Made by a program: the position numbers and the translations under genes. This document shows, piece by piece, positions 10,020 to 25,448 of a DNA stretch of 64,000 nucleotides (position 1 is its first letter; each line of letters opens with the position of its first letter). The notes under the pieces were generated by a model. That model was not told the DNA's origin and made no database searches. It saw only the letters and a program-made list of their open reading frames with translations. The stretch is from contig CAVSXK010000026.1 of NCBI GenBank assembly GCA_963731925.1, positions 21,526-85,525 on the forward strand, given 5' to 3'. This stretch comes from an uncultured Actinomycetes bacterium. GTDB lineage: Bacteria; Actinomycetota; UBA4738; HRBIN12.

Positions 10020-10079
10020 GCCCCCTGAGCCCCCTGAGCCGAGCGGCCGGGCGAGTCCCGGCCGTCCGAGGTCGAAATC

Positions 10080-10709
10080 CTACGACGAGCCGGCGGCCGC
10101 CGCTGCGAGTTCGGGCTTGATCTTGCGGCTGGTGATGACCTCGTCCACGACTCCGTACTCGACGGCCTCATCGGCCGTGAGGATGTAGTCGCGGTCCGTG
10201 TCCTTGGCCACCTTCTCGAGCGACTGACCCGTGTGCTCCGCGATCAGCTCCTCGAGGAGCTTGCGGTACCGGGTGATCTCCTTGGCCTGGATCTCGATGT
10301 CGACGGCCTGGCCCTGGGCGCCTCCGTGCGGCTGGTGCAGGAGGATGCGCGAGTGGGGCAGCGCGTACCGCTTGCCCTTGGTCCCGGCGAGCACCAGCAC
10401 CGCTGCGGCCGACGCCGCCTGCCCCATGCAGATCGTCGAGACGTCCGGCTTGATGTACTGCATCGTGTCGTAGATCGCGAACAGCGACGTGATGTCACCG
10501 CCCGGGGAATTCACGTACAGGTTGATGTCCTTGTCGGGATCCTCGGACTCCAGGTGCAGGAGCTGCGCCATGATGAGGTTGCCGACGGCATCGTCGATCG
10601 GCGTCCCGAGGAAGACGATCCGCTCCTTGAGCAGGCGTGAGTAGATGTCGAACGAGCGCTCCCCTCGGCTGGTCTGCTCGACGACGACGGGGACGAGGTA
10701 GTCCTTCAT
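10080..10709 (-). CDS. clpP: ATP-dependent Clp protease proteolytic subunit
   Basis: 209 aa; ClpP signature (...[42 protein letters not shown]...). Confidence 0.95.
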
Positions 10710-12082
10710 GACGTCTCCTCTGCTGTCTGGGCCGTGGCCGCGACCTCGTCGGAGGACCGTTCCGTCTCTCGGGTGGGGTCCTCGGTGCCGGGGTCCGACC
10801 GGATGTCCGCGTGCTCGACGAGGAGGTCGAGCGCCTTAGAGCGGATGATATCACCGGCCAGTGCTACGACTTGGCCGGTGCGGTCGAGGCTCTTGGCCAG
10901 ATCCTTCGGCTCGCGGCCGAGCGCGGCTGCGAGACTACCGATCTCGCGCCCGATCTCTTCGGCCGTCACCTGGATGTCCTCCTGACGGGCGACGGCCTCC
11001 AGGACGAGGTCGGCCTTGATGGCCCGGATCGCGTGGTCGCGAGCGTCCGCTCGGAACCGGAGCTCGTCGAACCCCTGCGTCTCGAGCAACTGGTTCAGGG
11101 TCATGCCCGCCTGCTCGGCGCGCTCCTGCGCGTGCACGACACGGTGCTGCACCTCCTCGTCGACGAGTGAATCCGGGAGCTCGACGTCGACCGAACCGAT
11201 CATCGCCTCGAGCACGCGATCGCGGACGTCGGCGTCGGCGGAGCGCTCCCGGTTCTTCCGCAACTGCTCCCGGAGATCCGCCTTCAGCTCCTCGAGCGTG
11301 TCGAACTCGGACGCCACCCTGGCGAACTCGTCGTCGGCGTCGGGCAGCTTCTTCCCCTTGACCTCCTTGACCAACGCTCGGAACGAGACCTCCTGCCCGG
11401 CACGATCCCCCGCACCGGGTCCGAGCGTGTCGTTGAACGCGATGATCTCGCCGGCGCGCTTGCCGGCGAGCTCGGCGTCCAGCTTGTCGCCGAACTCACC
11501 GCTGCCGACCGCATACAGGTGGTCGGGCCGGGTGGCCTCGGGGATCTCCTCGCCGTGGACGGCCGCGTGCAGGTCGACGACCACGTAATCGCCCTCGCGA
11601 GCCGCGCGCGACACGGTCTCGAGCTCGGCGAACCGATCGCGCAGCGAATCGAGATACCGGTCGACCTCCTGGTCGGTGATCTCGACCTTCGGTCGATCGA
11701 CCCGGATGCCCTTGTACGCCGACGCGTCGAGCGTCAGACGAGGCCGGACCTCGACGACCGCCGTGAAGACCAGCGCCTTGCCCTCCTCCACGTCGCCGAG
11801 CTCGATGTCGGGCTCGGTGATCGGGGCGAGATCGTGTTCGCGCAACGCCTCCCGGTAGTACGTGGGCACCGACTCCTCGATGAACTCGCCCAGCACGGCG
11901 TCGTGTCCGAACTGCGCATCGATCACCTGCTTCGGGACCTTCCCCTTGCGGAAGCCCGGGATCTTGATCTGTTGCGCGATCTTCCGGTACGCCCGGTCGA
12001 GGTCCTTTCCCACCTCGTCGGGCGGGATCTCGACGGTGAGCTTGACCGTGTGCTTGTCGGTCGATTCGAGGGTCGTCTGCAT
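10706..12082 (-). CDS. tig: trigger factor
   Basis: 458 aa from [24 protein letters not shown]..., PPIase/FKBP middle domain, acidic C-terminal tail; upstream part of the 728-aa ORF is not coding. Confidence 0.93.
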
Positions 12083-12119
12083 GCGCTCACGAGCGTAACG
12101 GAAAGGCGCTTCCGGTATC

Positions 12120-12941
12120 GTGCGCGGCCGGGGCTCGGAGCAGCCGCCGCGCCGGGAGGCCCACGTGGTCGAGACAGGGTTCGAGGACGAACTCGCGTTC
12201 GCGCACGAGTTGGCGGATCTGGCCGGCGAGATCGGTCTCGGGTTCTTCCACGGGTCGTTCGAGGTGACGATCAAACCCGATCGAACCCCGGTCACCGAAG
12301 CCGACCTGTCGATCGAGGCCACGATCCGGGCGGCGGTGAAGGAGCGCTTCCCCGGGGACAGCATCCTCGGGGAAGAGGGTGGCCTGGAAGGCGAGGGGCG
12401 GCGGCGGTGGATCGTCGACCCGATCGACGGGACGAAGAACTTCGCGGACGGCGTGCAGATCTGGTCGAACCTGATCGCGCTGGCCGTGGATGACGAACCG
12501 GTCGTGGGGGTCGTCAACCTGCCCGCGCTCGGCGAGCGGTACGACGCCTCGCGTGGAGGCGGCGCCAGGTTGAACGGCGAGCCGATCCAGGTCTCGCGCG
12601 CCGACCGCGTCCCGCGCTCGTTCGTGGTCTTCGCCGGCATGGAGGACTGGCTGTCGGGTCCGTTCGCGGGGGGTGTGCAGGCCCTCGTCTCGGAGGCGCG
12701 CAGGAACCGGGGGTTCGGCGACGCCTGGGGCCACTGCCTCGTGGCGCGCGGCTCGGCGGACGTCATGGTCGAGCTCGAGCTGGCCACCTGGGACTTCGCG
12801 GCCCTCCAGGTGATCGTCGACGAGGCGGGCGGTCGGATGAGCCAGTTCGACGGGTCGGCGCTCGCCCACGGCGGGACGGTCGTGACCACCAACGGAGTCC
12901 TGCACGACGAGATCGTCGCGAGGCTGCGACCCGAGGACTAG
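12120..12941 (+). CDS. inositol monophosphatase family protein (HisN/ImpA-like)
   Basis: IMPase motifs EEGG...WIVDPIDGTKNF...; start may be an internal GTG. Confidence 0.8.
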   Translation: MRGRGSEQPPRREAHVVETGFEDELAFAHELADLAGEIGLGFFHGSFEVTIKPDRTPVTEADLSIEATIRAAVKERFPGDSILGEEGGLEGEGRRRWIVDPIDGTKNFADGVQIWSNLIALAVDDEPVVGVVNLPALGERYDASRGGGARLNGEPIQVSRADRVPRSFVVFAGMEDWLSGPFAGGVQALVSEARRNRGFGDAWGHCLVARGSADVMVELELATWDFAALQVIVDEAGGRMSQFDGSALAHGGTVVTTNGVLHDEIVARLRPED

Positions 12942-12962
12942 GAGCCGGCGGATGGCGGACGG

Positions 12963-13376
12963 TCAGGAGGCCGGCAGACGCCGCATCGCCGACCTCGCAT
13001 CGGCGATGGTGACCTTCGCCTTGCGGTAGTTCCGCAGGGCGAACCGATCGCACGTGGTCTCGGCCGACATCCCTCGACCGTGGTGCCGGTGCAGGTACCA
13101 GTGCATCCATTCGTGCAGGTACAGGAACCGGAGCACCTCGCGCGGCGTTCGGAACGTCACGCCTTCGGTCAGCCAGATGAACCGGATGGACCGTCCGGGC
13201 CTGCGCTTGGCGCCGAACGCGACCACCTCGCCGAACGGGAGGAACGGCTCGGGGACCTGCAGCGTGATGGTCCGCGAGTCGAAGTCGGTCTGCGCGGCCA
13301 GGTGAGGCTTCTCCCGGTAGCGCAGGGGTTTGACGAGGACCTCGAACCCGTCGGTCGCGGGCAGGCCGGCCAGCAT
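12963..13376 (-). CDS. DUF45/WLM-like HExxH zinc-metallopeptidase family protein
   Basis: C-terminal LHEWMHWYLHRHH (HExxH) plus basic N-terminal segment typical of YgjP/DUF45. The ORF-track extension up to 13574 runs through the tRNA-Pro remnant and is not credible. Confidence 0.5.
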   Translation of the reverse strand: MLAGLPATDGFEVLVKPLRYREKPHLAAQTDFDSRTITLQVPEPFLPFGEVVAFGAKRRPGRSIRFIWLTEGVTFRTPREVLRFLYLHEWMHWYLHRHHGRGMSAETTCDRFALRNYRKAKVTIADARSAMRRLPAS

Positions 13377-13459
13377 CCGTCCGGCGCGGCCGTCCGACAG
13401 ATCGTCCACCGTGGAGGTGAGGTGCACGGGCGTAAGGCTAGCCAGGCTCGGAGGGATCG

Positions 13460-13502
13460 GTCGGGGCGGGCGGATTCGAACCGCCGGCCTCCTGCTCCCA
13501 AA
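13460..13502 (-). repeat. 43-nt direct repeat identical to the 3' half (anticodon loop to discriminator) of tRNA-Pro(TGG); att-like remnant
   Basis: gtcggggcgggcggattcgaaccgccggcctcctgctcccaaa is identical to 22948-22990. The 5' half of a tRNA is absent: no acceptor or D-arm complement upstream. Confidence 0.75.
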
Positions 13503-13590
13503 CCAGAAGCGGCGCAGAGCCGCTACCTGCGGAGACGATCGTTCGCCCTGGTCGGTGCTCGTAACAGGAGTCACACGGGCGCGGTCGAAT

Positions 13591-13632
13591 TCCGTTGGAT
13601 GCCGTTGGTTCTGCTACCTCGGTGCTACCTCC
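13591..13632. repeat. two pairs of short tandem direct repeats (CCGTTGG-N4-CCGTTGG; TGCTACCTC-N3-TGCTACCTC) next to the tRNA remnant
   Basis: Read directly: ttccgttggatgccgttggttctgctacctcggtgctacctcc. Confidence 0.4.
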
Positions 13633-13654
13633 CTGTTATCCGCGCGGACGCGAA

Positions 13655-13676
13655 GTGACCTCTTCCGCGTCAAGGA
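13655..13676. repeat. 22-nt motif gtgacctcttccgcgtcaagga, copy 1
   Basis: Exact repeat of 52707-52728; both copies lie in lower-GC non-coding spacers, each with gccaggctcg upstream (204 nt away here, 5 nt away at copy 2). Confidence 0.7.
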
Positions 13677-13750
13677 AGGCAGGCGCAATGGCCATGCATC
13701 CTCCACGAGGGTCGTTGCCTCCAGGCTACGGGCAGCCTGGAGGACGTGAA

Positions 13751-13781
13751 GCGACCCCGCCGGCATACGCGGCGGGGTCGC
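13751..13781 (-). terminator. 12-bp GC-rich hairpin downstream of the DUF4397 gene, followed by a second 10-bp hairpin at 13718-13743
   Basis: gcgaccccgccg-gcatacg-cggcggggtcgc; candidate intrinsic terminator without a clear U tract. Confidence 0.35.
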
Positions 13782-13807
13782 TCCCTACGCCTTTCGGTGC
13801 GGCGTCC

Positions 13808-14476
13808 CTACTTGGTGCCGACCTCCAGGGCCACGACCGCGAAGTCGTAGCCAGAGGTCCCGTTGCCCCAGGCGTAGACCTGGTAAGCCGTGCCCTCCTG
13901 CAGATCGAGGACGGCTGGCCCGATCACCGGCGCGTAGTCACCCGGAAGGGAGACCCAGGCCGCGTAGACGCCGGTGGGCACCTTCATCGTGGCGGAGGCG
14001 CCGTTCGGCACGTCCTCGAGCAGCACGGCGCCGTTCGCCCACACGTCGACGGCGGGGGCCGCGGCGGTGTGGCGGACCGTGAGGCGCGCGGTGTCGCTCC
14101 TCAGCGCCTTCACGTTGTTCTTGAACAACCCGAGGGTCGGGCTGCCATCGGCCGTCAGGTATGCGATCGCCGTGTAGTTCTTGTTCCTCGCCAGCTCGAC
14201 GCCGTCGGCCTCGAGGATCGCCTCGTCGTCGCAGGTGTTGCTGGCGGCCACGATCTTGACGTCGTAGGTGCCGGCCGGCAGCGGCACGCCGGTCACGACC
14301 TCGCCGGGGTTGAACTCGGGGATGGCCACGGCCCCGTTCATGCAGACTTCGACGTCCACGCCGGGGATCCCGTGCACGACGTTGAGCGACGCGTCGGCGG
14401 CCGAGGCCGTCCCCACGCCGAGCATCGAGACCGCGAGCGTCGCTGCGACACCGAGTCCCAGGAGTCGCTTCCTCAT
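13808..14476 (-). CDS. secreted DUF4397-like protein
   Basis: 222 aa with signal peptide (MRKRLLGLGVAATLAVSMLGVGTASA), beta-rich and Gly/Val-rich; family assignment from memory. Confidence 0.7.
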   Translation of the reverse strand: MRKRLLGLGVAATLAVSMLGVGTASAADASLNVVHGIPGVDVEVCMNGAVAIPEFNPGEVVTGVPLPAGTYDVKIVAASNTCDDEAILEADGVELARNKNYTAIAYLTADGSPTLGLFKNNVKALRSDTARLTVRHTAAAPAVDVWANGAVLLEDVPNGASATMKVPTGVYAAWVSLPGDYAPVIGPAVLDLQEGTAYQVYAWGNGTSGYDFAVVALEVGTK

Positions 14477-14616
14477 CCTGCTTCCTCCTCTTGCCTCGGG
14501 AGCGGGCCACTCCCGCTCCGTCCTCCCAGGAAGCTACGTGAGGACGCTGCCACAATCCATGCGTAAACCTATGCACTCCGCATTGTTTTCCGTCGGCAAC
14601 GCGGTACCATCTAGGC

Positions 14617-15525
14617 ATGCCTGACCCGAACGGAACCTCGAAGCCGGGCGTGCCCATCGCCACCGTGTCGAAGACGCTCGACATCCCGGTCCCCACCATC
14701 CGCTCCTGGGAGCGACGGTACGGCTTCCCCGCGCCGCCCCGGACGGACGGCCGGCATCGCCGCTACACCCCCCGCGAGATCGAGCAGCTCCGCAACCTCC
14801 GCGATCTCATCACGCGCGGGCACTCGGCCCGCGAGGCCGTCGCGCGCCTGAGCGCCGCACCGTCGCGGGCCGACGGCGGGGATCTCGTCGAACAGCTGAT
14901 CGACGCCGCGATGCGTCTGGACAGCGACGGGGTGCGCGGGGCGCTGGATGGCTCGGCCGAACGGCTCGGGGTCGAGGGCGCGATCCGCGACGTGATGTTC
15001 CGCGCGATGCGGGAGATCGGGACGCGGTGGAAGACCGGAACCTGCGACATCGAGCAGGAGCACCTCGCGAGCGAGGCGGTACGGGCGTGGCTCGCCCGCC
15101 AGAGGGCGATGGCGCCGCCCCCGTTCCGGCCGGATCCGATCGTCCTCGCGTGCGGTCCAAAGGACCTCCACACGATCGGGCTCGAGGCGTTCGCCGTCGT
15201 CCTCGCCCGGCGGGGCTGGCCCCTGCGGATGCTCGGCGCGATGACACCCGCCCCCTCGCTCCTCTCGGCGGTCCGAACCGTCCGCGCGGCGGTGGTGGTG
15301 GTGATCTCCCAGCGCGGTGTCACGCGCCGGGCGGCGATCGAGTCCCTCGCGGGGGTCGACGCCGTGCCGGGCGTCAGGGCGTTCTATGCGGGGGACGCGT
15401 TCGTCGCGGCGTCCGCTCGGCGCGACGTCCCCGGCACGTACCTGGGGGAGGACGTGGTCCAGGCGGCCGAGCTGCTTGAGTCCGCCCTCACGCGGCCCCG
15501 GTCCAGCCGGAGCGCGGCGCGCTAG
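14617..15525 (+). CDS. carH: CarH/LitR-type MerR-family transcriptional regulator with B12-binding domain (light-sensing photoreceptor regulator)
   Basis: MerR HTH (VSKTLDIPVPTIRSWERRYGFP); Wx9EH motif (WKTGTCDIEQEH); canonical B12-binding DxHxxG (DLHTIG). Confidence 0.85.
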   Translation: MPDPNGTSKPGVPIATVSKTLDIPVPTIRSWERRYGFPAPPRTDGRHRRYTPREIEQLRNLRDLITRGHSAREAVARLSAAPSRADGGDLVEQLIDAAMRLDSDGVRGALDGSAERLGVEGAIRDVMFRAMREIGTRWKTGTCDIEQEHLASEAVRAWLARQRAMAPPPFRPDPIVLACGPKDLHTIGLEAFAVVLARRGWPLRMLGAMTPAPSLLSAVRTVRAAVVVVISQRGVTRRAAIESLAGVDAVPGVRAFYAGDAFVAASARRDVPGTYLGEDVVQAAELLESALTRPRSSRSAAR

Positions 15526-16826
15526 GTCGCGACCGGGACGATCGGCTCCGGGTAGCCGGAGCCGCGGAGCAGCGCCGGGTCCTTCCACGGGGTGAAGACC
15601 AGGGGCGCCTGGACGCCGCGGAGCTCCTGGACGTACCGACGAATGTACGCGCCGCTCGGGTCGTACCGCCTGGCCTGCCGGACGGGATTCAGGGTCCGGG
15701 TTCGGCGGGGATCGGTGCCCGTGCCCGCCGCCCACTGCCAATTGCCGGCGTTGTTCGCGGGGTCCGCGTCGATCAGCAGACGTGAGAAGTGGCGTTCGCC
15801 CCGCTGCCACGGCACCCCGAGGCGCCGCGTCAGGAACGAGGCGGCCACGAGCCGCGCCCGGTTGTGCATCCACCCCTCGCGCAGCAGCTGGCGCATCCCG
15901 GCGTCGACGAGCGGGAGCCCGGTCCGACCTTCGCGCCAGGCGGCCAGCGCGCGATCCTCCGGCACCGGAGGCCCGGAGATCCCCACCGGGTCCCGGAGGC
16001 TCCGCCACGCGAGCGCCGGGTCCTCCGCTAGGAGCTGCAGGAAGAAGTCGCGCCACGCCAGCTGCCGGACGAACGGCTCGGCGGCGGCGGCGTTCGCGCG
16101 TATCGCCACCTCGTTAGCCGAAACGCACCCGAACCGCAGATAGGGAGACAGGCGCGACGTGGCCTCGACCGCGAGGTCGTCCCGTCCCTCCGCATAGCCC
16201 CCGAGCTCGCGTCCGAGGAAAGCGTGGAGGCGCCGCCGCCCGACGCGCTCGCCGCCACGGGCGACGTCGACCGCGTCGGGCGTGACCGATACCGGGTCCG
16301 GTCGCGGGCCCGGCTCCAGATCGCCCGGGACGATGACCCGCCGCGGCGCGGGCAGAAGGTCACCCGGCGGTCGCTGCCTCCAGGCGCGGAAGTACGGGGT
16401 GAACACGCGATACGCGTTCGCCCGCGGGAGCCCGCCGGGCTCGAAGACGGCGCTCTCGGGGAAGACCCGCAGGTCGAGCCGCGCCCGCTCGCAGGCCTCG
16501 GCGAGCTGGCGCTCGCGGCGTCGGGCGTAGGCGCTCGCGTCCCCCGTCACGAAGATCGCCGAGCAGCCCGCCTCGATCGCGACCGTCATCGCCTCTTCGA
16601 CCACCGCCCCCCGGCGGACGAACAGCCGGCCGTCGAGTCGTTCGAGCGAGCGATCCAGGTCGACGAGGCTCTCGAGCAGGAACCGGTCGCGGTTCGCCGA
16701 GGTCTCGAGGAGCCCCGGGTCCAGCACGAAGAGCGGGACGATCTCGGAGGCCGTCCGGCACGCCTCGGCGAGCGCGGGGTGATCGTGGACACGCAGGTCA
16801 CGCGTGAACAGGACGAGGATCCGCAT
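15522..16826 (-). CDS. phr: deoxyribodipyrimidine photolyase (CPD photolyase)
   Basis: 434 aa; photolyase/cryptochrome FAD-binding motifs (...WREGRTGLPLVDAGMRQL...GWMHNRARLVAASFL...DADPANNAGNWQWAAGTGTD). Confidence 0.9.
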   Translation of the reverse strand: MRILVLFTRDLRVHDHPALAEACRTASEIVPLFVLDPGLLETSANRDRFLLESLVDLDRSLERLDGRLFVRRGAVVEEAMTVAIEAGCSAIFVTGDASAYARRRERQLAEACERARLDLRVFPESAVFEPGGLPRANAYRVFTPYFRAWRQRPPGDLLPAPRRVIVPGDLEPGPRPDPVSVTPDAVDVARGGERVGRRRLHAFLGRELGGYAEGRDDLAVEATSRLSPYLRFGCVSANEVAIRANAAAAEPFVRQLAWRDFFLQLLAEDPALAWRSLRDPVGISGPPVPEDRALAAWREGRTGLPLVDAGMRQLLREGWMHNRARLVAASFLTRRLGVPWQRGERHFSRLLIDADPANNAGNWQWAAGTGTDPRRTRTLNPVRQARRYDPSGAYIRRYVQELRGVQAPLVFTPWKDPALLRGSGYPEPIVPVAT

Positions 16827-16899
16827 GGGTTCGACTGTAGGGGTCTCATGTCGCCATCGGGTCCCCGAACCCGTGCAACCTGGCCGGGCCGATCCGTGA

Positions 16900-17730
16900 T
16901 CAGTCGGCGGACGCCAACGTCCCCGCGAAGATCTGCCACGCCAGCGCGGACTTGGCCACCAGACTGAGGAGCATGTAGACGCGCTCCCCGAACAGGTAGT
17001 CCTTCCACCGCCCGATCTGCCGGTACTGCAGCCATTGGTTCACGGCGAACGACATGAAGAACACGAACAGTGAGACGAAGATCGCGTAGACGAACCCCGG
17101 TGCCTGCGCGTCCGTGCCGATCCCGGCGAGGTACAGCCCGATCGCGATCCACGGGACGACCCCGATCAGGCTCCCGAGCCAGAACGGCAGCATGCCCCCG
17201 CCGGGGCGCTCGTACCGCTCCTGCAGCAAGCCGAACAGGATCATCGCCGCGTTGGCCCCGAGGATCGCGATCACGGCGGCCACGTCGGTAATGCCGGGGA
17301 GCAGCGCGATCAGCACCGCCATGAGCGACGCGCTCACCGAGTACTCGATCCACCGGAAGTCGTTGCGCCCCACCAACAGCATCCGCCGGTACCGCGGGAA
17401 CCCCAGCGGCGAGGCGATCAGGAAGTGCGCGATCGCCGAGATCAACAGGAAGGCGGCCACCGCCCACGCCACGCGCAGGTCGAACAGCGTGACCGTCTCC
17501 GACGCGGAGCCCGGCGGGCCGGTGAGCGGGTGGATGACGATCGGGATCGTGAACCCGGTCGCGAGGATGAGGATCAGCACGCCCTGCGCCGCGTGCAGGA
17601 GGCCGAGGGCGAGGTTGACGCCCCGCAAGCGGCCGATGCGGCTCGAGACCTCGGCCTCCGAGGCGCCCGGGAACAGCAGCTCGCGAAGATCCTCGCGCGA
17701 AGCGGCGCTCATCGGAACCGCTCCCTGCAT
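16900..17730 (-). CDS. heliorhodopsin
   Basis: 276 aa, 7TM; strong similarity to heliorhodopsin 48C12 as recalled from memory (FRWIEYSVSASLMAVLIAL.., ..LPFWLGSLIGVVPW.., ..ERVYMLLSLVAKSALAWQIFAGTL with the retinal Schiff-base Lys in SLVAKSALAW). Possible alternative start at M7 (17712) with better RBS (GGGAG). Confidence 0.88.
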   Translation of the reverse strand: MQGAVPMSAASREDLRELLFPGASEAEVSSRIGRLRGVNLALGLLHAAQGVLILILATGFTIPIVIHPLTGPPGSASETVTLFDLRVAWAVAAFLLISAIAHFLIASPLGFPRYRRMLLVGRNDFRWIEYSVSASLMAVLIALLPGITDVAAVIAILGANAAMILFGLLQERYERPGGGMLPFWLGSLIGVVPWIAIGLYLAGIGTDAQAPGFVYAIFVSLFVFFMSFAVNQWLQYRQIGRWKDYLFGERVYMLLSLVAKSALAWQIFAGTLASAD

Positions 17731-17779
17731 CGTGGGAGCTCTTGGTCTTCATGGTCCCATCTCCTTCCGTCGCACGGCT

Positions 17780-17796
17780 CCTCGGCGGCGCCGAGG
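17780..17796. other. perfect 17-bp GC palindrome abutting the CFA-synthase stop codon in the CFAS-heliorhodopsin spacer
   Basis: cctcggcg-g-cgccgagg; could be an intercistronic terminator or attenuator hairpin, or a dimeric-regulator operator. Confidence 0.3.
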
Positions 17797-17797
17797 G

Positions 17798-19051
17798 TCA
17801 TGCAGCTTCGAGGACGATCTGGCTCACGTCGGTACGTCCTGCCCGGAACCCTCCCTCGCAGTACGAGAGGTAGTACTGCCACATCCGCTTGAAGCGCTCA
17901 TCGAACCCGAGACCGGCGATGGCGGGCCACGACGCGTCGAAGCGCCGACGCCACTCGGCCAGGGTGAGCGCGTACGACGACCCGTAGCCCTGCATCGCCG
18001 TGATCCGCAACCCAGCGGCCGCAGCGTCGGCCCGCAGCACGCCGGGCGAGGGCACCTGGCCCCCGGGGAAGACGTAGCGGCGGATGAAGTCGGGGTTCGC
18101 GTCCGAGGACGCCCAGTGCCGGTCCGCCACCGTGATGGCCTGCAGGCCGATCCGCCCGCCCGGACCGAGACGGTCCGCGAGCGCGCGGAAGTACTCGACC
18201 CACCGGGTTCGCGGGATCGACTCGATCATCTCGATCGACACGATCGCGTCGTAGGTGCCGGGGGTCCGCGCGAAGTCCTCGAGGCGCACCTCCACGCGAT
18301 CGCCGAGCCCTCGGTCGGCCATCAGCTTCTCCACCCACGTCGCCTGCTCCCCCGACACCGTCACCGTGCTCACGGTGCACCCGAGCTCGCCGGCCGCGAA
18401 GGCGGCGAACCCACCCCATCCGGAGCCCACCTCGAGGACCCGCATCCCCGCTCGCAGGCCGGCGGCCCGCGCGATGCGCAGGTACTTCTCCCGCTGCGCC
18501 TCCTCCAGAGACATGTCCTCGCGCGCGAACACGGCCGACGAATACGTCATCGACCCGTCCAGCCACTCGCGGAAGAATGCGTTGCCGAGGTCGTAATGCT
18601 CCACGGGGGTCCGGAGCGGACCTCGCGGTGTGCTGGCGCGGCCGATCCATCGCCAGGCGGCGCGCCCGGCGCGGTCGAGGACGACGGGGATCCGGGGGCG
18701 ATGGTCCCGCTCCAGGTGCAGCGCCCCGAGCTCGATCACGGACGCCAGGTCGGGTGAGTCGAACTCGCCGGCGATCCAGCCGTCGGCCAGCCCGATCGCG
18801 CCCGTGGAGAGGAGCCGTCGGATCACGCGTTCGTCGCGCAGGTCCACCTCGGCGTCGGGCCCCGGCAGCCTTCCGGTGTACGTGCGCATCGAGCCGTCAG
18901 GGAACCGCACCCGGAGGGTCCCGGTACGGAGCAGCCGGCCGGCGAGCCGGTCCAGGAGCCACCGCTCGGCGCTCACGTCCCCACCCCCACCGGTCCGCGC
19001 TCGATCGTCACGAGGTGGTCCGGGGTCGGGCCGTGGCGGCGGAACGGGGCC
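17798..19051 (-). CDS. cyclopropane-fatty-acyl-phospholipid synthase family SAM-dependent methyltransferase (UfaM/UfaO-like)
   Basis: SAM-binding VLEVGSGWGG and CFA-synthase C-terminus (...QYYLSYCEGGFRAGRTDVSQIVL); start approximated at an internal GTG; overlaps DUF1365 stop. Confidence 0.8.
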   Translation of the reverse strand, partial: GPVPPPRPDPGPPRDDRARTGGGGDVSAERWLLDRLAGRLLRTGTLRVRFPDGSMRTYTGRLPGPDAEVDLRDERVIRRLLSTGAIGLADGWIAGEFDSPDLASVIELGALHLERDHRPRIPVVLDRAGRAAWRWIGRASTPRGPLRTPVEHYDLGNAFFREWLDGSMTYSSAVFAREDMSLEEAQREKYLRIARAAGLRAGMRVLEVGSGWGGFAAFAAGELGCTVSTVTVSGEQATWVEKLMADRGLGDRVEVRLEDFARTPGTYDAIVSIEMIESIPRTRWVEYFRALADRLGPGGRIGLQAITVADRHWASSDANPDFIRRYVFPGGQVPSPGVLRADAAAAGLRITAMQGYGSSYALTLAEWRRRFDASWPAIAGLGFDERFKRMWQYYLSYCEGGFRAGRTDVSQIVLEAA

Positions 19052-19761
19052 CCCTTGCGCCACAGGCGAAGGGCCTCCCAGTGGATCCCGCCGAGCACCT
19101 TGAGCGTGACCATCGGGTGGGTGGCGAACACCCGCCACAGGCCGAACCGCCCGAGCTCGCGACGCATCGCCACCAGCGTCGCCGTCAGCACCTGGCCGGC
19201 GGCGACGTGCTCGCGGACGATCAGGGCCGCTCGGTCGTCGGGCGGGCGCACGCGGAAGTCGTACGTCGCCTCTTGGTCGATGAACGGCGACACGAAGAGC
19301 TCCTTGCCGAACACGTGCCGGGCGTTCCCCGCGGGATCGAGCCCGTCGACCCTCGCGAGGTGATGGTGCCACTGCCCGAAGGTGTTCGACACCTCGTAGA
19401 GCACCGCCCGGAGGTCACCCCCCGGCCCGTATCCGAACCACACCGAGATCGGGTTGAATACGTGCCCGAGGACCCTCGGCAGGGTCAGGATCCGGACGGG
19501 TCCACCCTCGAGGTCGATCCCTGCCTCCCGCAGGTAGCCCTCGAGCCACGGGCGCAGCGGCGACCCGTCGCGCGGCCCGTGGTCGCGATCCCAGAACGCG
19601 AACGGGGCCGCGCGGTTGTGACCGAACCCGGCCGCCGAGCGATCCAGCTCGTCGACCTCGTCCAGGTCCAGCCACAGGTAGTACACGCCGTAGGAGAAGC
19701 GGTGCGTCGCCGGGAAGAAGCGGCGATGCATGACGGTCCCAACGTACAGAGCGCTGTTCAT
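18973..19761 (-). CDS. DUF1365 family protein
   Basis: MNSALYVGTVMHRRFFPATHRFSYGVYYLWLDLDE... typical DUF1365; flanked by amine-oxidase-like and CFAS-like genes as recalled for RSP_1087-1091-type clusters. Confidence 0.8.
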   Translation of the reverse strand: MNSALYVGTVMHRRFFPATHRFSYGVYYLWLDLDEVDELDRSAAGFGHNRAAPFAFWDRDHGPRDGSPLRPWLEGYLREAGIDLEGGPVRILTLPRVLGHVFNPISVWFGYGPGGDLRAVLYEVSNTFGQWHHHLARVDGLDPAGNARHVFGKELFVSPFIDQEATYDFRVRPPDDRAALIVREHVAAGQVLTATLVAMRRELGRFGLWRVFATHPMVTLKVLGGIHWEALRLWRKGAPFRRHGPTPDHLVTIERGPVGVGT

Positions 19762-21060
19762 GCGGCGATCGCACCCACGAGAGCGGGCGGCCTCGGCATG
19801 ACGCCCCATGGTGCCGGCGCACCGAGGGCCGCGGCCACGTCCAGGCCGGAGCGCAGTCCGTCCTCGTGGAAGCCGTGCCCGCACCAGGCGCCGGCGAACC
19901 ACGTGCGACGGCCCCCCTGGATCGCCGGGAGCGAGCGCTGCGCGTCGAGGGCTGCCCGGTCGAACTGCGGGTGCACGTACCCGAACCGCTGCACCTCGCC
20001 TCGGGGGTCGCGGATCGGGTTGAGCGTGACGAAGACTGGCCGCTCGGTCCGCAGGTTCTGCAGCCGGTTCATCCAGTACGTGAGCGACACCGGCTTGGAT
20101 CGATCGGGCTGACCGCGCCCGTCGGCGAGGTAGTTCCAGCTGGACCACACGGCCCGGCGCCGGGGCATCAAGGCGGGATCGCGATGCAGCACGGCCTCGT
20201 TGTCCTGGTAGCGGATGGCCCCGAGGACGTGGCGCTCGCGCAGCGTCGCCTCGGAGCCGAGGATCTGGAGCGTGGTGTCGGGATGGGTGGCGAACACCAC
20301 CTCGTCGAACCGGTCGAGCCCACCTGACGCGTCGAGCACCTCGACGCCGTCCTCGTCCCGGCGGACGGCCACCACCCGCGCCGAGAGACGGATCCGATCC
20401 CGATAGCCGGCGGTCAGCCGCCGCACGTACTCCCGGCTCCCTCCGCTCACGGTTCGCCACCGTGGGCGCGCCCGCACCTGGAGGATGTCATGGCTCGAGA
20501 GGAAGCCGACCAGCGTGGTCACGGGGAACTCGAGCATGTCGTCGAGCCCGGACGACCAGATGGCGGCGCTCACGGGGAGCAGCAGGTCCAGGCGGAACTC
20601 GTCGCCGTAGCCACCGCCGCTCCAGATACGAGCCAAGCGACTCGCGCGTTCCGGACGCCAGGACCCGCGGCGCGTCTCGACAGAACCGCCGGAAGTCCCG
20701 CAGCATCCGCCAGGTCCCCGGTCGGATCGCGTTGGACGGCTGCGCGAGCAGGCCGCGGGCCCGGCTCTGGTACTCGAACGAGCCACCGCCCACCGACACC
20801 GAGAAGGACATGTCGCTCCACTCGGTCGGGACCTCGAGCACATCGAACAGGCGGACGAGGTTCGGGTAGTTCCGTTCGTTGTAGACGATGAACCCGGTGT
20901 CGACCGGGACGAGACCTCCCTCGTCCTCCACGTCGACCGTGTTCGAGTGCCCGCCGATCCGCGCCTCGGACTCGTACAGGACCACCTCGTGACGGTGGTC
21001 CAACGCCCACGCGGCGCCCATCCCGGCGATGCCGCCGCCGATGACCCCGATCCTCGCCAT
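19758..21060 (-). CDS. FAD/NAD(P)-binding amine-oxidase-like oxidoreductase (UfaD-like), interrupted by a single +1 frameshift near 20625
   Basis: N-terminus MARIGVIGGGIAGMGAAWAL (Rossmann GxGxxG) in one frame, remainder (..GGYGDEFRLDLLLPVSAAIWSS.. to ..TWFAGAWCGHGFHEDGL) in another; an extra T in cggcggTggctacggc. Confidence 0.75.
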
Positions 21061-21197
21061 GGCCCGACGGTAGAGTCGGATAGCGCCCGCTGCATCGTTT
21101 CGGCCCCCATGTGCATAGGTTCGGCAGAGGTTGGCAGAGGGCCCCGGGACGTACCGTCCGGGGTATGGATCGGATCACTCCTCGACGGCGGAGGCCC

Positions 21198-22211
21198 TCA
21201 CGCGCTGGTGGCTCGGCTCGGGCCGACCTCGCTCGCCGACGTGCTCAGCCGCTCGCACGCGCGCCACAGCCGGCGCGCATCTCGGTCGTCCACGCGGGTG
21301 CCGAGGAGTCGGTCGACCGGGCGGGCTCCACGGTCCAGCCAGAACCTGCCGGTCGTGCGCGCGGGTTCCTCCGACGCAACGAGCCAGACGATCGTGTCCG
21401 CGCCCTCCTCGGGCGTTCGGAGCCTGGGCCCGATCAGCCGGTGGAACGTCGGGAGCGAGGCGACGACGCCCGGGGTGTCGGCCCATCCGGGGTGCATCGC
21501 GTTGACCGTGATGGCCCGGCCCCGCAGTCTTCGGGACCACTCGCGGGTGAGGGTGACCAGCGCCCGCTTCGCCCTCGCGTAGGCGATGCTCCCCCGGTAC
21601 GACTCGCGCTCCATCTGCAGGTCGTCCAGGTGGAGCCCCTGCAGGTACATGCCCCCGGAGGCGACGTTGACGACGCGCGCGACGCCGGCGTTCCCGGCGG
21701 TGCGCTCGAGGAGCGGCACGAGGCCGTTCGTGAGGACGAAGGGCCCGAGCACCATCGTGGTGAACGTCATCTCGTAGCCGTCGACGGAGACCCGGCGCTC
21801 GGGCAGGAGCGCGCCCGCGTTGTTGACGAGCGCGTCGAGCCGTTCCTCGGACTCGGCCATCTGATCGGCGACCCGCCGGACGGCGGCGGGGTCGCTGAGG
21901 TCGAGCGTGTACGTCGCGACCTCGGCGCCGGGAGCGACCTGCAGGACCGACTCGCGCGCCCGCGCGGCCTTGCCCTCGTCGCGGACCAGGAGTCGCAGCC
22001 CGGCACCCATCTTCGCCAGGCGCGTCGCCGCGGCCAGGCCGAGGCCCGAGCTCGCTCCCGTGATCGCCACGACGCGACCCGTCAGGTCGAGGCGGTCGAG
22101 GTCTTCCCAGTCGAACAAGGACGAACGGATCATCGGACCGAGGTCCGTGAAGCTCAGGACCACGGACGCCTCGATCACCTCGTCGGCCAGCCGCCTGAGA
22201 TCGACCATCAC
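21198..22211 (-). CDS. short-chain dehydrogenase/reductase (SDR) family oxidoreductase
   Basis: TGASSGLG cofactor motif, NNAG, catalytic Y-x3-K (YARAK); first gene of the minus-strand lipid-modification operon. Confidence 0.8.
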   Translation of the reverse strand: MMVDLRRLADEVIEASVVLSFTDLGPMIRSSLFDWEDLDRLDLTGRVVAITGASSGLGLAAATRLAKMGAGLRLLVRDEGKAARARESVLQVAPGAEVATYTLDLSDPAAVRRVADQMAESEERLDALVNNAGALLPERRVSVDGYEMTFTTMVLGPFVLTNGLVPLLERTAGNAGVARVVNVASGGMYLQGLHLDDLQMERESYRGSIAYARAKRALVTLTREWSRRLRGRAITVNAMHPGWADTPGVVASLPTFHRLIGPRLRTPEEGADTIVWLVASEEPARTTGRFWLDRGARPVDRLLGTRVDDRDARRLWRACERLSTSASEVGPSRATSA

Positions 22212-22306
22212 AGCTCCCTGAAAGTCCCCTCCCCTCTCTTGACGCTAGCAGCGACGGGTGCCCATCCGATCCCACGAACCGATGCACAGGACAAGGAGGC
22301 CGGAAG

Positions 22307-22744
22307 ATGACCGTACTGAACGAGGAGCTGAAGGTGAGCCGACCACTCGACGAGGTCTTCGGACTGGTCGGCGACTTCGCGAACGCCGAGGTCTGGGATC
22401 CCGGCGTGGAGGAGTCCCGAGCCATCACCGAGGGACCGGTGCGCGTCGGGAGCCGGTACGAGCTGACCGTCGTGTTCAACGGCCGCCGCCTGCCGATGAC
22501 CTACGAGGTCACGGCGTTCGACCCTCCGCGCCGCGTCGAGCTGGTCGGGACGGGTTCGACAGTGGACGCGCGGGACGACATCCGATTCGAGGCGACCGAT
22601 GAAGGGACGAGGATCCTCTACATGGCCGATCTTCGGCTCAAAGGGGTGCTCCGCTTGATAGAGCCGCTCCTGCGATCGAAGTTCGAGCAGGTCGGCCGCC
22701 GGGCGATGGAGGGGATGCGCGCGGCGTTCGAGGCCAAGCCCTGA
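22307..22744 (+). CDS. SRPBCC (START/Bet v1/polyketide-cyclase-like) domain protein
   Basis: 145 aa; good RBS AAGGAGG; divergently transcribed from the SDR gene. Confidence 0.8.
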   Translation: MTVLNEELKVSRPLDEVFGLVGDFANAEVWDPGVEESRAITEGPVRVGSRYELTVVFNGRRLPMTYEVTAFDPPRRVELVGTGSTVDARDDIRFEATDEGTRILYMADLRLKGVLRLIEPLLRSKFEQVGRRAMEGMRAAFEAKP

Positions 22745-22753
22745 GGCAAGACT

Positions 22754-22921
22754 TCACAGAAGAGTGCGGACGCGCGGTCGGCAACCGAGGCCTCGAGGTG
22801 CCAGGAGGAACCGCTTGCGATCGAGCCCACCGGCGTACCCCGTCAGCGAGCCTTCGCTGCCGATCACCCGGTGGCAGGCCACGACGATGCCGATCGGGTC
22901 TGGGACGACGGTCTGGTGGAC
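22754..22921 (-). pseudogene. ogt: remnant of the C-terminal about 55 aa of O6-alkylguanine-DNA alkyltransferase (ogt/MGMT), N-terminal two-thirds missing
   Basis: ..[33 protein letters not shown] matches the MGMT active-site region (PCHRV...GYAGG..K..LL). Only about 50 nt separate it from the tRNA-Pro 3' end, too few for the missing N-terminal domain. Confidence 0.55.
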
Positions 22922-22947
22922 GGCGAAAGCATAACGGGGGGCCTCTA

Positions 22948-22990
22948 CCGGGGTTTTGTCGGGGCGGGCGGATTCGAACCGCCGGCCTCC
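22948..22990 (-). repeat. second copy of the 43-nt direct repeat (inside the tRNA-Pro gene)
   Basis: Identical to 13460-13502. Confidence 0.75.
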
Positions 22991-23022
22991 TGCTCCCAAA
23001 GCAGGCGCGCTGCCAGGCTGCG
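22949..23022 (-). tRNA. tRNA-Pro (anticodon TGG)
   Basis: Cloverleaf folded by eye: acceptor CGGGGCG/CGCCCCG, anticodon stem CCTGC/GCAGG, loop TTTGGGA, T-arm GGCGG-TTCGAAT-CCGCC; CCA not encoded. Confidence 0.85.
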
Positions 23023-23173
23023 CTACGCCCCGTCCGATGGATGCTAACGCGCCAGCCGGACGGGAGCGTCCAGGATCGAGAGCGAGAGCGTGACCCGCTC
23101 CGCTCGGGCGGGCCCGCGCACGCGCCTCGATCCGGTTCGGTCCAATGGTCACGGGTGATACAAAGGGGACCCG

Positions 23174-23845
23174 ATGCGCACCCTCCCTCGACCCCCCGTC
23201 GCCCTGCAGGATGCCGCGGTCGACCTGCGCAGCGTGACGCGACTGTTCGGCGCGGCACCTGCGCTCGTCCGCGTCGACCTGTCGATCGAGCGAGGAGAGG
23301 CGGTCGTCCTGCGGGGACCGAACGGCGCGGGCAAGAGCACGCTGCTTCGGATCGTCGCGACGGCGCTCTCGCCGACCTACGGTGGCGGATCGGTGCTCGG
23401 ATTCGACCTCGCAACCGAGCGCGAGGAGATCCGTCGGCGTTCGGAGCTCCTCACGCACCGAACGCGCCTGTACGAAGAGCTCTCCGCGCGTGAGAACCTC
23501 GAGCTGTTCGCTGATCTCCTCGGCATCAGCCGCGTCCGCGTAGGGGAGGCGCTCGAACGCGTCGCGCTCGACGACGTGGCGGACGAACGCGTGAGGACGT
23601 TCTCCGCGGGGATGCGCCAGAAGGTCGCGGTCGCCCGCGCGATCGTCCGCGATCCCGAGCTCCTCCTTCTCGACGAACCCACCACCGGTCTGGACGCCGC
23701 TGCCCGTCAGGCGGTGGACGACATGATGCTGCGTGCCTCGCGCGAGGGACGAACACTCGTGATCGCGACACATCACGAGGTCGCGCCCGGCCTCGCCGCC
23801 CGCGTCGTCACGATGCGCGATGGTTCCGTGGAGACCGGCTCGTGA
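23174..23845 (+). CDS. ccmA: heme exporter ATP-binding protein CcmA
   Basis: ABC ATPase motifs [28 protein letters not shown]; first gene of the ccmABCD run. Confidence 0.88.
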
Positions 23846-24513
23846 CCTTCGCGCGCCAGGCGAGCGTGATCGCGCGCAAGGACCTCCTGATCGAGGTGCG
23901 CGGACGACACGCGGTCGGGACGCTGCTCCCGTTCGCGGCGACCGTCCTCGTGGCGTTCGGGTTCGCGTTCGGCCCGGGGCGGGACATCCTCGAACGGGTC
24001 GCGCCCGGTCTCCTCTGGATGGCGTTGTTGTTCTCGGCCGTCATGGCGTCCCGCCGCACGTACCAGACGGAGGCGGAGGACGGCGCCCTCGAAGGGCTGC
24101 TGCTCGCGCCGATCGACAAGGCCGCGGTCTACCTCGGGAAGACCTTCGCCGTGACGGTCGAGCTGCTCGCGCTCGTGATCGCCGTGCTCCTGCTCGTCGT
24201 GGTGCTGTTCGACCTCTCGGTCGCGAGCCCTCTCCTGCTGGTCGCCGCGTTCGTGCTCGGGGTCGTCGGACTCGCGGCGGTGGGGAGCCTCTTCGGGGTC
24301 GTCGCCGAGTCGGCGCGAACGCGCGAAGCGATCTTCCCGATGCTGGTCCTGCCGCTCGTCGCGCCGGTGCTGATCGCCGGTGTCCGCGCCACCGATCTCG
24401 CGGCGGCGGGGCGTTCGGGCGAGGTGCTCGCGTGGCTCGGTCTGCTCGCCGCGTTCGACATCGTGTTCCTGTCGGTCGGCGTCCTGGTGTTCGGCTACCT
24501 GTTGGAGGACTGA
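23842..24513 (+). CDS. ccmB: heme exporter membrane protein CcmB
   Basis: 223 aa, 6 TM, overlaps ccmA stop; CcmB-like. Confidence 0.85.
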
Positions 24514-25242
24514 TTGGCGGCGACCGCGGAACGCGCACTCGGCCGGGCGACGTCTCGCGGTGGCGAGCGGACGCTCGGCATCTCGGCGATCCTCGCCCTC
24601 GGGGTGTCGGCCGTGCTCTCGCTCGTCGTGGCACCCCCCGACGCGGTGCAGGGTGAGGTCCAGCGGATCATGTACGTCCACGTCCCCGCCGCCTGGCTCG
24701 CCTACCTGTCGTTCTTCGTCGTCTTCGTCGCGAGCATCGCCTACCTGCGCACGAAGAAGACGCGTTGGGACCGGGTCGCCGCCGCATCGGCCGAGATCGG
24801 CGTGCTGTTCACGGCCCTCGCGATCGTCCTGGGGATGCTGTGGGGCAAGCCCGTCTGGGGCACGTGGTGGACGTGGGACCCGAGGCTCACGACGACCGCC
24901 GTCTTGCTCTTGATCTACGTCTCCTATCTCGCGATCCGGCGCATCACGGACAACCCGTCGCGGCGAGCACGCTGGGCGGCCGTGGTGGGCATCGTCGGGT
25001 TCGTCGACGTGCCGATCGTGCACCTGTCGGTCGTGTGGTGGCGCTCGCTGCACCAGGGATCGACGGTGTTCCGGCTGGGAGGACCCGAGATCGAGGGGAC
25101 GATGCTGCTCGCGCTGCTCGTCGGCGTCGCCGCGTTCACCGTCACGTACGCGTACCTGATGACGCTCCGCCTGCGCGTCGGGCGGCTCGAAGAGCGGGCG
25201 GCGCGCGAGGCCCTGTCACCCCTCGTCGGGGCCGAGCGCTGA
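24514..25242 (+). CDS. ccmC: heme exporter protein CcmC
   Basis: 242 aa; W-rich heme-handling motif WGTWWTWDPRLT; TTG start. Confidence 0.85.
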   Translation: MAATAERALGRATSRGGERTLGISAILALGVSAVLSLVVAPPDAVQGEVQRIMYVHVPAAWLAYLSFFVVFVASIAYLRTKKTRWDRVAAASAEIGVLFTALAIVLGMLWGKPVWGTWWTWDPRLTTTAVLLLIYVSYLAIRRITDNPSRRARWAAVVGIVGFVDVPIVHLSVVWWRSLHQGSTVFRLGGPEIEGTMLLALLVGVAAFTVTYAYLMTLRLRVGRLEERAAREALSPLVGAER

Positions 25243-25388
25243 TGGCCCCCAACGTCGGGTACGTGATCGCTGGATACCTCGTCACCGCGATCGCGCTCGG
25301 CGGGTACACGCTGCGGCTGTTCGCCCGGGCACGCGACGCGAAACGGCGCGCCCAGACGATCGCCGAACGCCGCCATGGAGGGGTTTGA
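25243..25388 (+). CDS. ccmD: heme exporter protein CcmD (small single-TM protein)
   Basis: 48 aa MAPNVGYVIAGYLVTAIALGGYTLRLFARARDAKRRAQ...; ATG overlaps ccmC TGA (ATGA). Confidence 0.6.
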
Positions 25389-25448
25389 AGGTTCGAGCGG
25401 CGAGAACGTCGGTTGGGCTGGATGGTTCTCTGGGCCTCGGTCGGATGC

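Follow-up and report, generated by a model that had tools for sequence, protein, structure and literature searches.

The stretch analysed here, referred to as the window, comprises 64,000 nt of contig CAVSXK010000026.1 (assembly GCA_963731925.1, positions 21,526 to 85,525 of the forward strand) from an uncultured soil bacterium of the Gaiellaceae, and the element of interest in it is a block of light-defence genes, the photoprotection island, that lies against a tRNA-Pro(TGG) gene. This tRNA gene was called by ARAGORN at 22958-23032 on the minus strand. Its 3' part, the 43-mer GTCGGGGCGGGCGGATTCGAACCGCCGGCCTCCTGCTCCCAAA, extends from the anticodon loop to the discriminator base and occurred in the 64-kb window as two exact copies in the same orientation, at 13460-13502 and 22958-23000, the left copy being without the tRNA 5' half. 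An earlier sequence-only reading of the window had reported this exact repeat and placed the left copy correctly, but had set the right copy at 22948-22990, which is 10 nt too low. No third copy was present in the window when up to 3 mismatches were allowed (shuffled sequences gave an expectation of 0.00), so the 43-mer is not a generic multi-copy element. The period of the repeat is 9,498 bp, with 9,455 bp between the copies. From the tRNA outwards the insert consists of tRNA-Pro, a 58-nt arm (P'), a 9.2-kb cargo, a 186-nt arm (ARM) and the 43-nt tRNA fragment (FRAG). Gene identities were assigned by Pfam profile search of all open reading frames (ORFs) of the island, and for the cargo the cluster on L111, a contig of another species, served as comparison. 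The features are listed below.

12963..13427, minus strand: flanking anchor gene for a 154-aa HExxH protein, conserved neighbour of the tRNA-Pro 3' end
13460..13502, minus strand: FRAG, the displaced 3' 43 nt of tRNA-Pro(TGG), core of the distal attachment site; exact match to 22958-23000
13503..13688, minus strand: ARM, conserved non-coding 186 nt adjoining FRAG, with three direct AGGTAGC, two CCAACGG and the distal CCTTGACGCGGAAG
13689..22899, no strand assigned: cargo, captured chromosomal block of 9.2 kb, colinear with the non-island cluster of L111
13808..14476, minus strand: DUF4397 gene (PF14344, 1.4e-27), 93% identity to the L111 orthologue, divergent from carH
14566..14576, plus strand: candidate CarH operator AACCTATGCAC (AACCKATGCAC), upstream of carH
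14617..15525, plus strand: carH, CarH/LitR-type regulator (MerR_1 2.6e-12, B12-binding_2 1.2e-12, B12-binding 7e-06)
15522..16826, minus strand: DNA photolyase gene (DNA_photolyase 5e-39, FAD_binding_7 1e-64), last gene of the minus-strand operon
16900..17730, minus strand: heliorhodopsin gene (PF18761, 1.5e-93, profile positions 1-242 of 242)
17798..18979, minus strand: CMAS-family S-adenosylmethionine-dependent methylase gene, UfaM-like (CMAS 1.7e-74; tblastn to the L111 orthologue)
18973..19761, minus strand: DUF1365 protein gene, UfaO-like (DUF1365 3.6e-72)
19758..21060, minus strand: FAD amine-oxidase-like gene, UfaD-like (Amino_oxidase and NAD_binding_8 matches in two reading frames)
21111..21121, minus strand, and 22277..22287, plus strand: further copies of AACCKATGCAC, intergenic within the island
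21198..22211, minus strand: short-chain dehydrogenase (SDR) gene (adh_short 4e-29), first gene of the minus-strand operon
22307..22744, plus strand: SRPBCC gene (Polyketide_cyc2, 1.1e-16), divergent from the operon
22759..22899, minus strand: ogt remnant, residues 120-166 of a 166-aa Ogt (DNA_binding_1 profile positions 29-77), cut at the cargo breakpoint
22900..22957, minus strand: P', the tRNA-proximal arm of 58 nt, found neither at the empty site nor in the native cluster; the arm motif recurs in it as CCGGTAGAGG
22958..23032, minus strand: intact tRNA-Pro(TGG) (ARAGORN), the attB or integration target, its 3' 43 nt now supplied by the insert; the same tRNA is found at empty sites
23174..23845, plus strand: flanking ccmA, first gene of the cytochrome c maturation cluster (Pfam ABC_tran), contiguous with tRNA-Pro at empty sites

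Conspecific contigs were retrieved by an exact match to the ClpP protein of the window and then to the exact anchor protein. The exact ClpP protein is assigned to Gaiellaceae at NCBI, and the lineage is one of uncultured soil Actinomycetota. In the contigs found with ClpP, ccmA, tRNA-Pro and the anchor gene were contiguous. The empty locus L004 was 99.4% identical to the window on both sides, and a stretch of 47 nt in it aligned to both copies of the repeat. According to the junction alignment the empty site is made up of the left flank, one core and the right flank, and relative to it the window carries a precise insertion of 9,498 bp; in close relatives the empty site corresponded to the occupied site without the island and with one repeat, as expected of an island in a tRNA gene. 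The footprint of site-specific integration that had been read from the repeats was thereby borne out, near-identical strains lacking exactly one repeat period of the window. Ten contigs carried the exact anchor protein, and the site was empty in eight of them, held the photoprotection island in one and a different insert in another. Among 80 species representatives of the lineage, about 20 species had tRNA-Pro at a distance of 24-111 bp from the anchor gene, which identifies the empty site as the ancestral state, and photoprotection genes were found in the interval between tRNA-Pro and the anchor in none of the 80. Look-ups with the exact heliorhodopsin or SRPBCC protein returned nothing or tiny contigs only.

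The GC content of the island was 0.709, compared with 0.683 and 0.698 in the flanks, and its codon-usage distance of 0.045 lay inside the split-half spread of the flanks (0.054 ± 0.012). This comparison, which the sequence-only reading had proposed as a check, revealed no difference and was uninformative either way; a composition like that of the host is expected for transfer within the family. The anchor protein matched no Pfam family. It carries the motif HEWMH, and at least 80 species encode it, at 64-98% identity, directly downstream of tRNA-Pro. The outward-facing distal motif of ARM may make up for the displaced promoter of the anchor gene. In four more distant loci (L064, L069, L086 and L090) tRNA-Arg(TCT), tRNA-Gly(TCC) and tRNA-Pro(TGG) lie within about 1.5 kb, and in the window (22958-37975) these three tRNA genes are split by the 8.8-kb ccm cluster and a further 6 kb; the neighbouring tRNAs may also have been insertion points. 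Fragments of tRNA-Gly or tRNA-Arg were not found elsewhere in the window.

The origin of the cargo was indicated by L111, which carries the nearest heliorhodopsin gene on a long contig (88% identical). The same ten genes are present there in unchanged order. Their ogt has its full length of 166 aa, their amine oxidase gene is intact, and they are neighboured by MTHFR and YkuD genes upstream and by DoxX, SHOCT and P-type ATPase genes downstream, all of them ordinary genes. Neither tRNA-Pro nor ARM occurred near this cluster, the sole tRNA on L111 being a tRNA-Leu about 3.7 kb upstream of ogt, and the flanks of the native cluster were absent from the window. By blastn, window positions 22899..13689 matched L111 4858..14060 with 89.4% identity over 9,228 nt, and the junction alignments placed one breakpoint of the cargo inside ogt and the other 7 nt past the doxX start codon. 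The tRNA-Pro/anchor locus of the same genome, on contig L027, was 78.7-81% identical to the window. The cargo is thus about 10 percentage points closer to the L111 genome than the core flanks are, which argues that it was acquired horizontally from a lineage with the chromosomal cluster. As judged from these alignments, the photoprotection island is shown to be a copy captured from a related lineage, where the cluster is an ordinary part of the chromosome; the points at which it was cut are arbitrary.

Two genes of the captured copy are frameshifted. The ufaD-like gene has a +1 frameshift near 20616, with the frame change at residue 148/149 (tblastn), and the ogt remnant has a +1 frameshift near 22801; at both places the window has an extra G compared with L111 and L112. 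Either true pseudogenization or homopolymer errors of long reads would account for these shifts. One strain (L002, positions 1028-1984) has an IS481-family transposase gene (rve) between carH and the photolyase gene of its photoprotection island.

The genes of the cargo form a coherent set. The SDR, ufaD-like, ufaO-like, ufaM-like, heliorhodopsin and photolyase genes follow each other in this order on the minus strand as one tightly spaced array, the SRPBCC and DUF4397 genes are divergent from the array, and carH and the photolyase gene converge. The carH product has the domain order of a CarH/LitR regulator, with MerR_1 at residues 14-75, B12-binding_2 at 91-160 and B12-binding at 175-242, the last of these at 26.3 bits and so under the 32.1-bit cut-off. 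A CMAS methylase, an FAD-dependent desaturase-type protein (amine-oxidase/phytoene-desaturase) and a DUF1365 protein, the families that belong to furan fatty acid synthesis (PMC7380195), are encoded together. Singlet oxygen is quenched by furan fatty acids, which are the products of UfaM, UfaD and UfaO, the last being the DUF1365 protein (PMC7380195), and a heliorhodopsin is described that stimulates the photolyase of its operon (PMC9769723). The heliorhodopsin has more than 7,000 homologues, of which the nearest are from Actinomycetota; no carotenoid or retinal genes were present in the annotated parts of the window.

The 11-nt motif AACCKATGCAC had 3 matches in the 64 kb, compared with 0.01 expected, and all of them lie in intergenic regions of the island. 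It was kept at the same three places in L111 and was also found near carH homologues in four other species (L045, L072, L073 and L077), which marks it as a good candidate CarH operator. The cargo is most likely one light regulon under the predicted control of CarH. In the dark, a B12-dependent CarH repressor would occupy the AACCKATGCAC operators, and in the light the array from the SDR to the photolyase gene would be derepressed together with the divergent SRPBCC and DUF4397 genes. By analogy with the systems cited above, the products would supply the membrane with furan-type fatty acids as scavengers of singlet oxygen and would carry out DNA photorepair, with heliorhodopsin perhaps aiding the photolyase. 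The gene content given by the sequence-only reading agreed with the Pfam assignments, and the functional coherence that it had claimed gained support from a shared motif confined to the intergenic regions of the island. A CarH homologue of 57-62% identity was also seen between the anchor gene and inositol-phosphatase genes in L032, L034, L040, L043, L045, L070, L072 and L077, with AACCKATGCAC beside it in L045, L072 and L077; in L073 the motif stands beside a carH homologue elsewhere. Light-regulon genes thus recur near the tRNA-Pro locus, across the anchor gene, in other forms.

Beyond the photoprotection island, the pair of ARM and tRNA fragment adjoined at least 8 unrelated cargoes at about 30 loci, sometimes in tandem. 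ARM was found on contigs L010, L012 to L014 and L032 and, with an ARM 21-mer, on 19 further metagenome contigs, and it was shared by cassettes with different cargo at E values of 1e-44 to 1e-56. Fourteen copies of ARM contained near-invariant blocks, chiefly GAGGTAGCACCGAGGTAGCAGAACCAACGG, with the motif CCGCAGGTAG nearer to the core, and the distal boundary was sharp at CCTTGACGCGGAAG. The identity block began exactly at the anticodon loop in all copies compared. Across cassettes the 3' end of the tRNA or of FRAG is immediately followed by a short motif; its consensus is AACAAACCCGCAGGTAGAG, and the window reads AAAACCCCGGTAGAGGCC. A shared tRNA-proximal arm of 100 nt or more was not detected when the first 400 nt of the islands were compared with the window by blastn, only the motif of about 20 nt being common. 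With copies of the core at both ends and the conserved ARM and P', the island has the flanking attL and attR of a cis-mobilizable element (CIME). ARM is probably the P arm of a phage-type attachment site (attP) with arm-type integrase sites. Taken together, ARM, the 43-nt core and P' would form an attP of about 290 bp, in which strands cross over in the anticodon loop and the repeated (C/G)AGGTAG to either side would be the arm-type sites.

The possibility that ARM is a structured RNA was rejected, since RNAalifold gave no covariation and Rfam yielded only a sub-threshold tmRNA-like match caused by the tRNA-like 3' end. A 28-nt sequence, CTGCCATCCTTGACGCGGAAGAGGTCAC, at 52707-52734 on the minus strand differs at one position from the distal end of ARM (13655-13682). 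With a Meth_synt_2 (MetE-like) gene (51533-52678) about 40 nt downstream of it, the sequence looks like a promoter or operator element; Rfam had no match around this second copy (at about 52.7 kb). In the 1.66 Mb of the window and all loci, the 14-mer core of this sequence occurred otherwise only at ARM ends and once in L055 at 8677, upstream of a gene, and L109 has a variant with two mismatches, CCTTGACGCGGAGA, some 60 nt downstream of its first tRNA fragment. L101 (1706-1870) and L108 (1120-1233) each have a sequence resembling ARM, with the same GAGGTAGCACCGAGGTAGCAG and additional GGTAG motifs, and next to it stands the 3' half of a tRNA other than tRNA-Pro. The anticodon loop of this half reads TTTGCAA, by eye that of tRNA-Ala(TGC), and ARAGORN calls no tRNA there; the arrangement suggests that a sister family of cassettes targets another tRNA.

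Complete units, taken from tRNA-Pro or its fragment to ARM and the next fragment, contained the following cargoes, among others.

L103: a single gene for a 1,139-aa cyclase-AAA-TPR protein
L109 and L126: a gene for a 1,002-aa SBP_bac_5 solute-binding protein (the SBP cassette)
L094: a STAND kinase gene
L032: a WD40 protein gene
L014: a BNR-like protein gene
L099 and L012: a 13-kb set of polysaccharide, sulfotransferase and Na-H exchanger genes

Copies of ARM with the tRNA fragment stood in tandem in L014 and L109. In one species-level population, four states of the site were observed: empty; the photoprotection island; the SBP cassette with a different ARM subtype; and the photoprotection island followed by a truncated SBP cassette, which in L002 is without its ARM and fragment. 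Relatives with an anchor 94-97% identical had an ARM of only 78-80% identity, while in L014, with an anchor of 86%, ARM was 86-88% identical. This decoupling of ARM identity from flank identity led to rejection of the view that the arms are one vertically inherited scar of an ancient insertion. Between strains the island was 97.7% and 96.2-97.5% identical, compared with 99.4% and 98.8% for the flanks. On these comparisons the insertions are independent rather than one ancient scar. Four empty loci (L001, L006, L007 and L009), compared with window positions 58-13506 and 22958-30203, were 98.2-98.3% identical on the ccm side and 85.7-88.3% on the tig/clp side, a jump which indicates that a breakpoint of homologous recombination coincides with the integration site. 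The 13-kb island of L099, which is bounded by ARM, contains at 1195-1650 an ORF of 151 aa whose product has a phage terminase small-subunit domain (Terminase_4, 5e-10). This ORF is situated 0.9 kb from tRNA-Pro and may be left over from an ancestor or helper that resembled a phage satellite.

No integrase or transposase was detected by Pfam in any ORF of the photoprotection island, as the sequence-only reading had also stated, and the intergenic gaps are too small for a further integrase-sized gene. The integrase that a tRNA island is expected to carry internally is thus missing, and by Pfam the island is, like a CIME, without integration and transfer genes. In the complete cassettes of L103, L109, L094, L032 and L014 the coding capacity was accounted for, with no room for an integrase and no Pfam match to one. 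Integrases were likewise absent from the Pfam lists of 20 conspecific places, from the P' neighbours and about 30 larger ORFs of the window, and from the most populous families listed for 84 cluster representatives of interval ORFs from the 80 species. When the integrases of L5 and lambda were compared by phmmer with 7,507 six-frame ORFs of at least 120 aa from the 1.66 Mb of the window and all loci, the best E value was about 3. A search of viral contigs with the ARM 21-mer was negative, and ARM had no blastn match in phage and plasmid collections. For a possible origin from an integrative and conjugative or integrative and mobilizable element (ICE or IME), neither a relic in the island nor a related autonomous element in the collections searched was found, the terminase-like ORF of L099 being the only hint. 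As no integrase was found, the central actor of the mechanism proposed below is hypothetical.

We regard 13460-22957, with a probability of roughly 0.6, as a CIME-like cassette in tRNA-Pro(TGG) of an uncultured soil member of the Gaiellaceae that has an attP and no integrase of its own, is moved by an unlinked tyrosine integrase and carries one light regulon as cargo. A heterobivalent tyrosine integrase would bind the arm-type sites and exchange strands in the anticodon loop. Its source in trans would be a helper element or an unlinked gene of the chromosome, and it would recombine ARM, core and P' with tRNA-Pro, and any unit between two cores could be excised as a circle and re-inserted at tRNA-Pro. 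New cargo would enter a resident cassette between P' and ARM via illegitimate recombination or end joining. The window has a Ku-domain gene at 39620-40675 (minus strand), next to a long ORF at 40563-42401, so that non-homologous end joining would be available as a route of cargo capture.

Several points weigh against this interpretation. An integrase, excisionase or helper using this attP was absent from the 128 loci, the phage and plasmid collections and the viral contigs, and no circular form or excision junction was observed. The screen for integrases consisted of two seed proteins and of Pfam on selected ORFs, and a divergent recombinase could escape it. Precise loss of the island could also result from RecA recombination between the 43-nt repeats, and its presence or absence could spread by homologous exchange of the flanks. 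The arm-type sites were assigned from sequence repeats and the control by CarH from the placement of the motif. Finally, with +1 frameshifts in ufaD and the ogt remnant, the lipid pathway may be broken in the copy of the window, unless these are long-read errors.

The main rival is decay of a classical element, in which an integrase-bearing prophage or actinomycete integrative element would have lost its integrase and backbone and left a fixed scar, the island being absent from other strains through RecA-mediated deletion or replacement of flanking alleles. The lack of an integrase agrees with decay, as does the truncated and frameshifted ogt, which abuts the tRNA-proximal end where an integrase usually lies. 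The frameshift in ufaD points the same way, the terminase-like ORF of L099 could be a relic of a phage-like backbone, the SBP cassette of L002, deprived of its ARM and fragment, resembles a decaying array, and the step from 98% to 86-88% in the flanks of the four empty loci is consistent with homologous exchange breaking at the site. However, at least eight cargoes would each have to lose all backbone and yet keep the same minimal P' and ARM boundary, different ARM subtypes occur in one species, tandem units and four combinatorial states are observed, and the ogt fragment belongs to the captured chromosomal block and is not a gene of the element. The verdict of the sequence-only reading, that the element was fixed or decayed, is too simple for a unit that has kept both arms, is polymorphic in one population, stands in two array contexts and belongs to an integrase-less family. 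Because neither an integrase nor a circle was observed, decay keeps some weight, although we consider it rather unlikely.

The remaining explanations have much less in their favour. A Campbell-type insertion, in which circular DNA with the 3' half of tRNA-Pro recombined via RecA and without a site-specific recombinase, would produce a topology identical to that of site-specific integration and would agree with the missing integrase. We hold it to be improbable, as 43 nt are a poor substrate for RecA, the insert sequences that flank the core are conserved across unrelated cargoes with repeated motifs on both sides, which homology alone neither needs nor explains, and the identity block starts at the anticodon loop in all copies, as is typical of integrase crossover sites. 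If the island were ancestral at the locus and the empty sites secondary deletions, nothing would have been acquired in this lineage; deletion between direct repeats leaves exactly the empty site observed, and the composition of the island matches that of the host. This is still more improbable, given tRNA-Pro directly beside the anchor in about 20 species across the family, the absence of the genes from the interval in all 80 representatives, the cluster elsewhere in the L111 chromosome with an intact ogt, and a cargo about 10 percentage points closer to the L111 genome than the core flanks are. A chimeric join at the repeated tRNA sequence might be suspected in view of the short repeats and a source that is probably a metagenome assembly, but such an artefact is hardly credible. 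The ARM-side junction recurs in the independent assemblies L002 and L005/L125, the short contig L011 from another sample contains the ogt-side end of the cargo and in its match to L111 stops at the same breakpoint, and the ordered arm architecture at both junctions is that of dozens of other contigs.

A wider proposal may tentatively be added, which is conceivable though we would not rely on it: soil Gaiellaceae and their relatives may run a tRNA-anchored system functionally analogous to integrons, in which a dedicated integrase with its gene elsewhere in the genome would insert arbitrary chromosomal segments of 1-13 kb, joined to an attP of about 290 bp, at tRNA-Pro and would also stack, excise and exchange them there, with a sister set at another tRNA (that with the tRNA-Ala(TGC)-like anticodon loop). 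Whole regulons would then be traded as plug-in modules without a mobility gene of their own. A trans-acting integrase that serves such cassettes would open a route of gene flow that is missed by island finders based on integrases, and the cassette system with its missing integrase is the part most worth following up. The locus offers an integrase-less cassette family with conserved arms in an abundant uncultured soil lineage, and a documented case of a core chromosomal cluster that was broken within ogt and 7 nt into doxX and so turned into mobile cargo. The island is a complete, exactly delimited light-defence regulon which conspecific soil bacteria either have or lack as a single unit, and it allows a clean comparison for the role of heliorhodopsin. 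A photoprotective role of this gene can be tested directly, given its position between the furan fatty acid genes and the photolyase gene and the candidate CarH operator of the operon.

The sequence-only reading had regarded the island as a type not yet described. The gene set is, however, an ordinary chromosomal cluster in L111 and its parts are known, as are att-flanked islands without an integrase (PMC5704250) and the link between heliorhodopsin and photolyase (PMC9769723). Unusual are the minimal attP of each unit, the diverse cargoes with the same boundaries, and the lack of a helper at the site in more than 100 loci.

In its gene content the cargo resembles the CarH/LitR regulons and the sigmaE-ChrR singlet-oxygen regulon (PMC7380195, PMC5241685, PMC9758184), in which a light-responsive photolyase is co-regulated with CMAS, DUF1365 and FAD-oxidase genes and a MerR/B12 regulator is found alongside. 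It differs from them in that the genes form one operon that includes heliorhodopsin, control is attributed to CarH and not to an extracytoplasmic function (ECF) sigma factor, and the whole regulon lies in a mobile unit. Heliorhodopsin and photolyase genes are likewise adjacent in one operon in Trichococcus flocculiformis (PMC9769723). Unlike in that organism, which belongs to a different phylum, the operon of the window also contains the furan fatty acid genes.

Among mobile elements, actinobacterial elements with tyrosine integrases insert at tRNA genes, those of the pSAM2 type at tRNA-Pro and mycobacteriophage L5 at tRNA-Gly, and carry int (and xis) beside attP. They share with the cassettes the target at the tRNA 3' end, the identity block from the anticodon loop to the 3' end, the regeneration of the tRNA and an arm-rich attP, but the cassettes have no int, and ARM is unmatched in phage and plasmid collections. 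With integron cassettes the cassettes at tRNA-Pro have in common promoter-independent genes with one recombination site, arrays at a single chromosomal site and the lack of a recombinase of their own. They differ from these in that neither an IntI gene nor another recombinase gene lies beside the site, where the neighbours are ccmA and the gene of the 154-aa HExxH protein, in that the site is a tRNA gene, in having a linear attP of 290 bp with arm repeats in place of an attC hairpin (ARM is without a supported secondary structure), and in that they can hold ten genes in both orientations.

The Tycheposons of Prochlorococcus (bioRxiv 10.1101/2020.12.28.424599) also have "plug-in" cargo at tRNA genes, tandem units split by partial tRNAs and niche-related cargo, and a terS-like gene is held by the relative L099. 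Tycheposons possess a tyrosine or large serine recombinase and a replication module of their own, whereas the units described here have neither. The closest likeness is to CIMEs, integrase-less islands flanked by att sites for which accretion and mobilization have been described, including in Streptomyces (PMC5704250). In CIMEs such as the ICESt1-related islands of Streptococcus thermophilus and the pathogenicity islands of Streptomyces, attL and attR are likewise derived from the 3' end of the target gene, genes for integration and transfer are missing, units stand in tandem with others at the same site, movement is proposed to occur via the integrase of another element, and gene capture has been described (PMC5704250). 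In contrast to CIMEs, there was no cognate ICE or IME at the tRNA-Pro site in more than 100 loci and no backbone relic was found in the island, the host is an uncultured member of the Gaiellaceae, and the units are reduced to an attP of about 290 bp and cargo. That many unrelated cargoes have the same arm boundaries points to a cassette family rather than to occasional products of decay.

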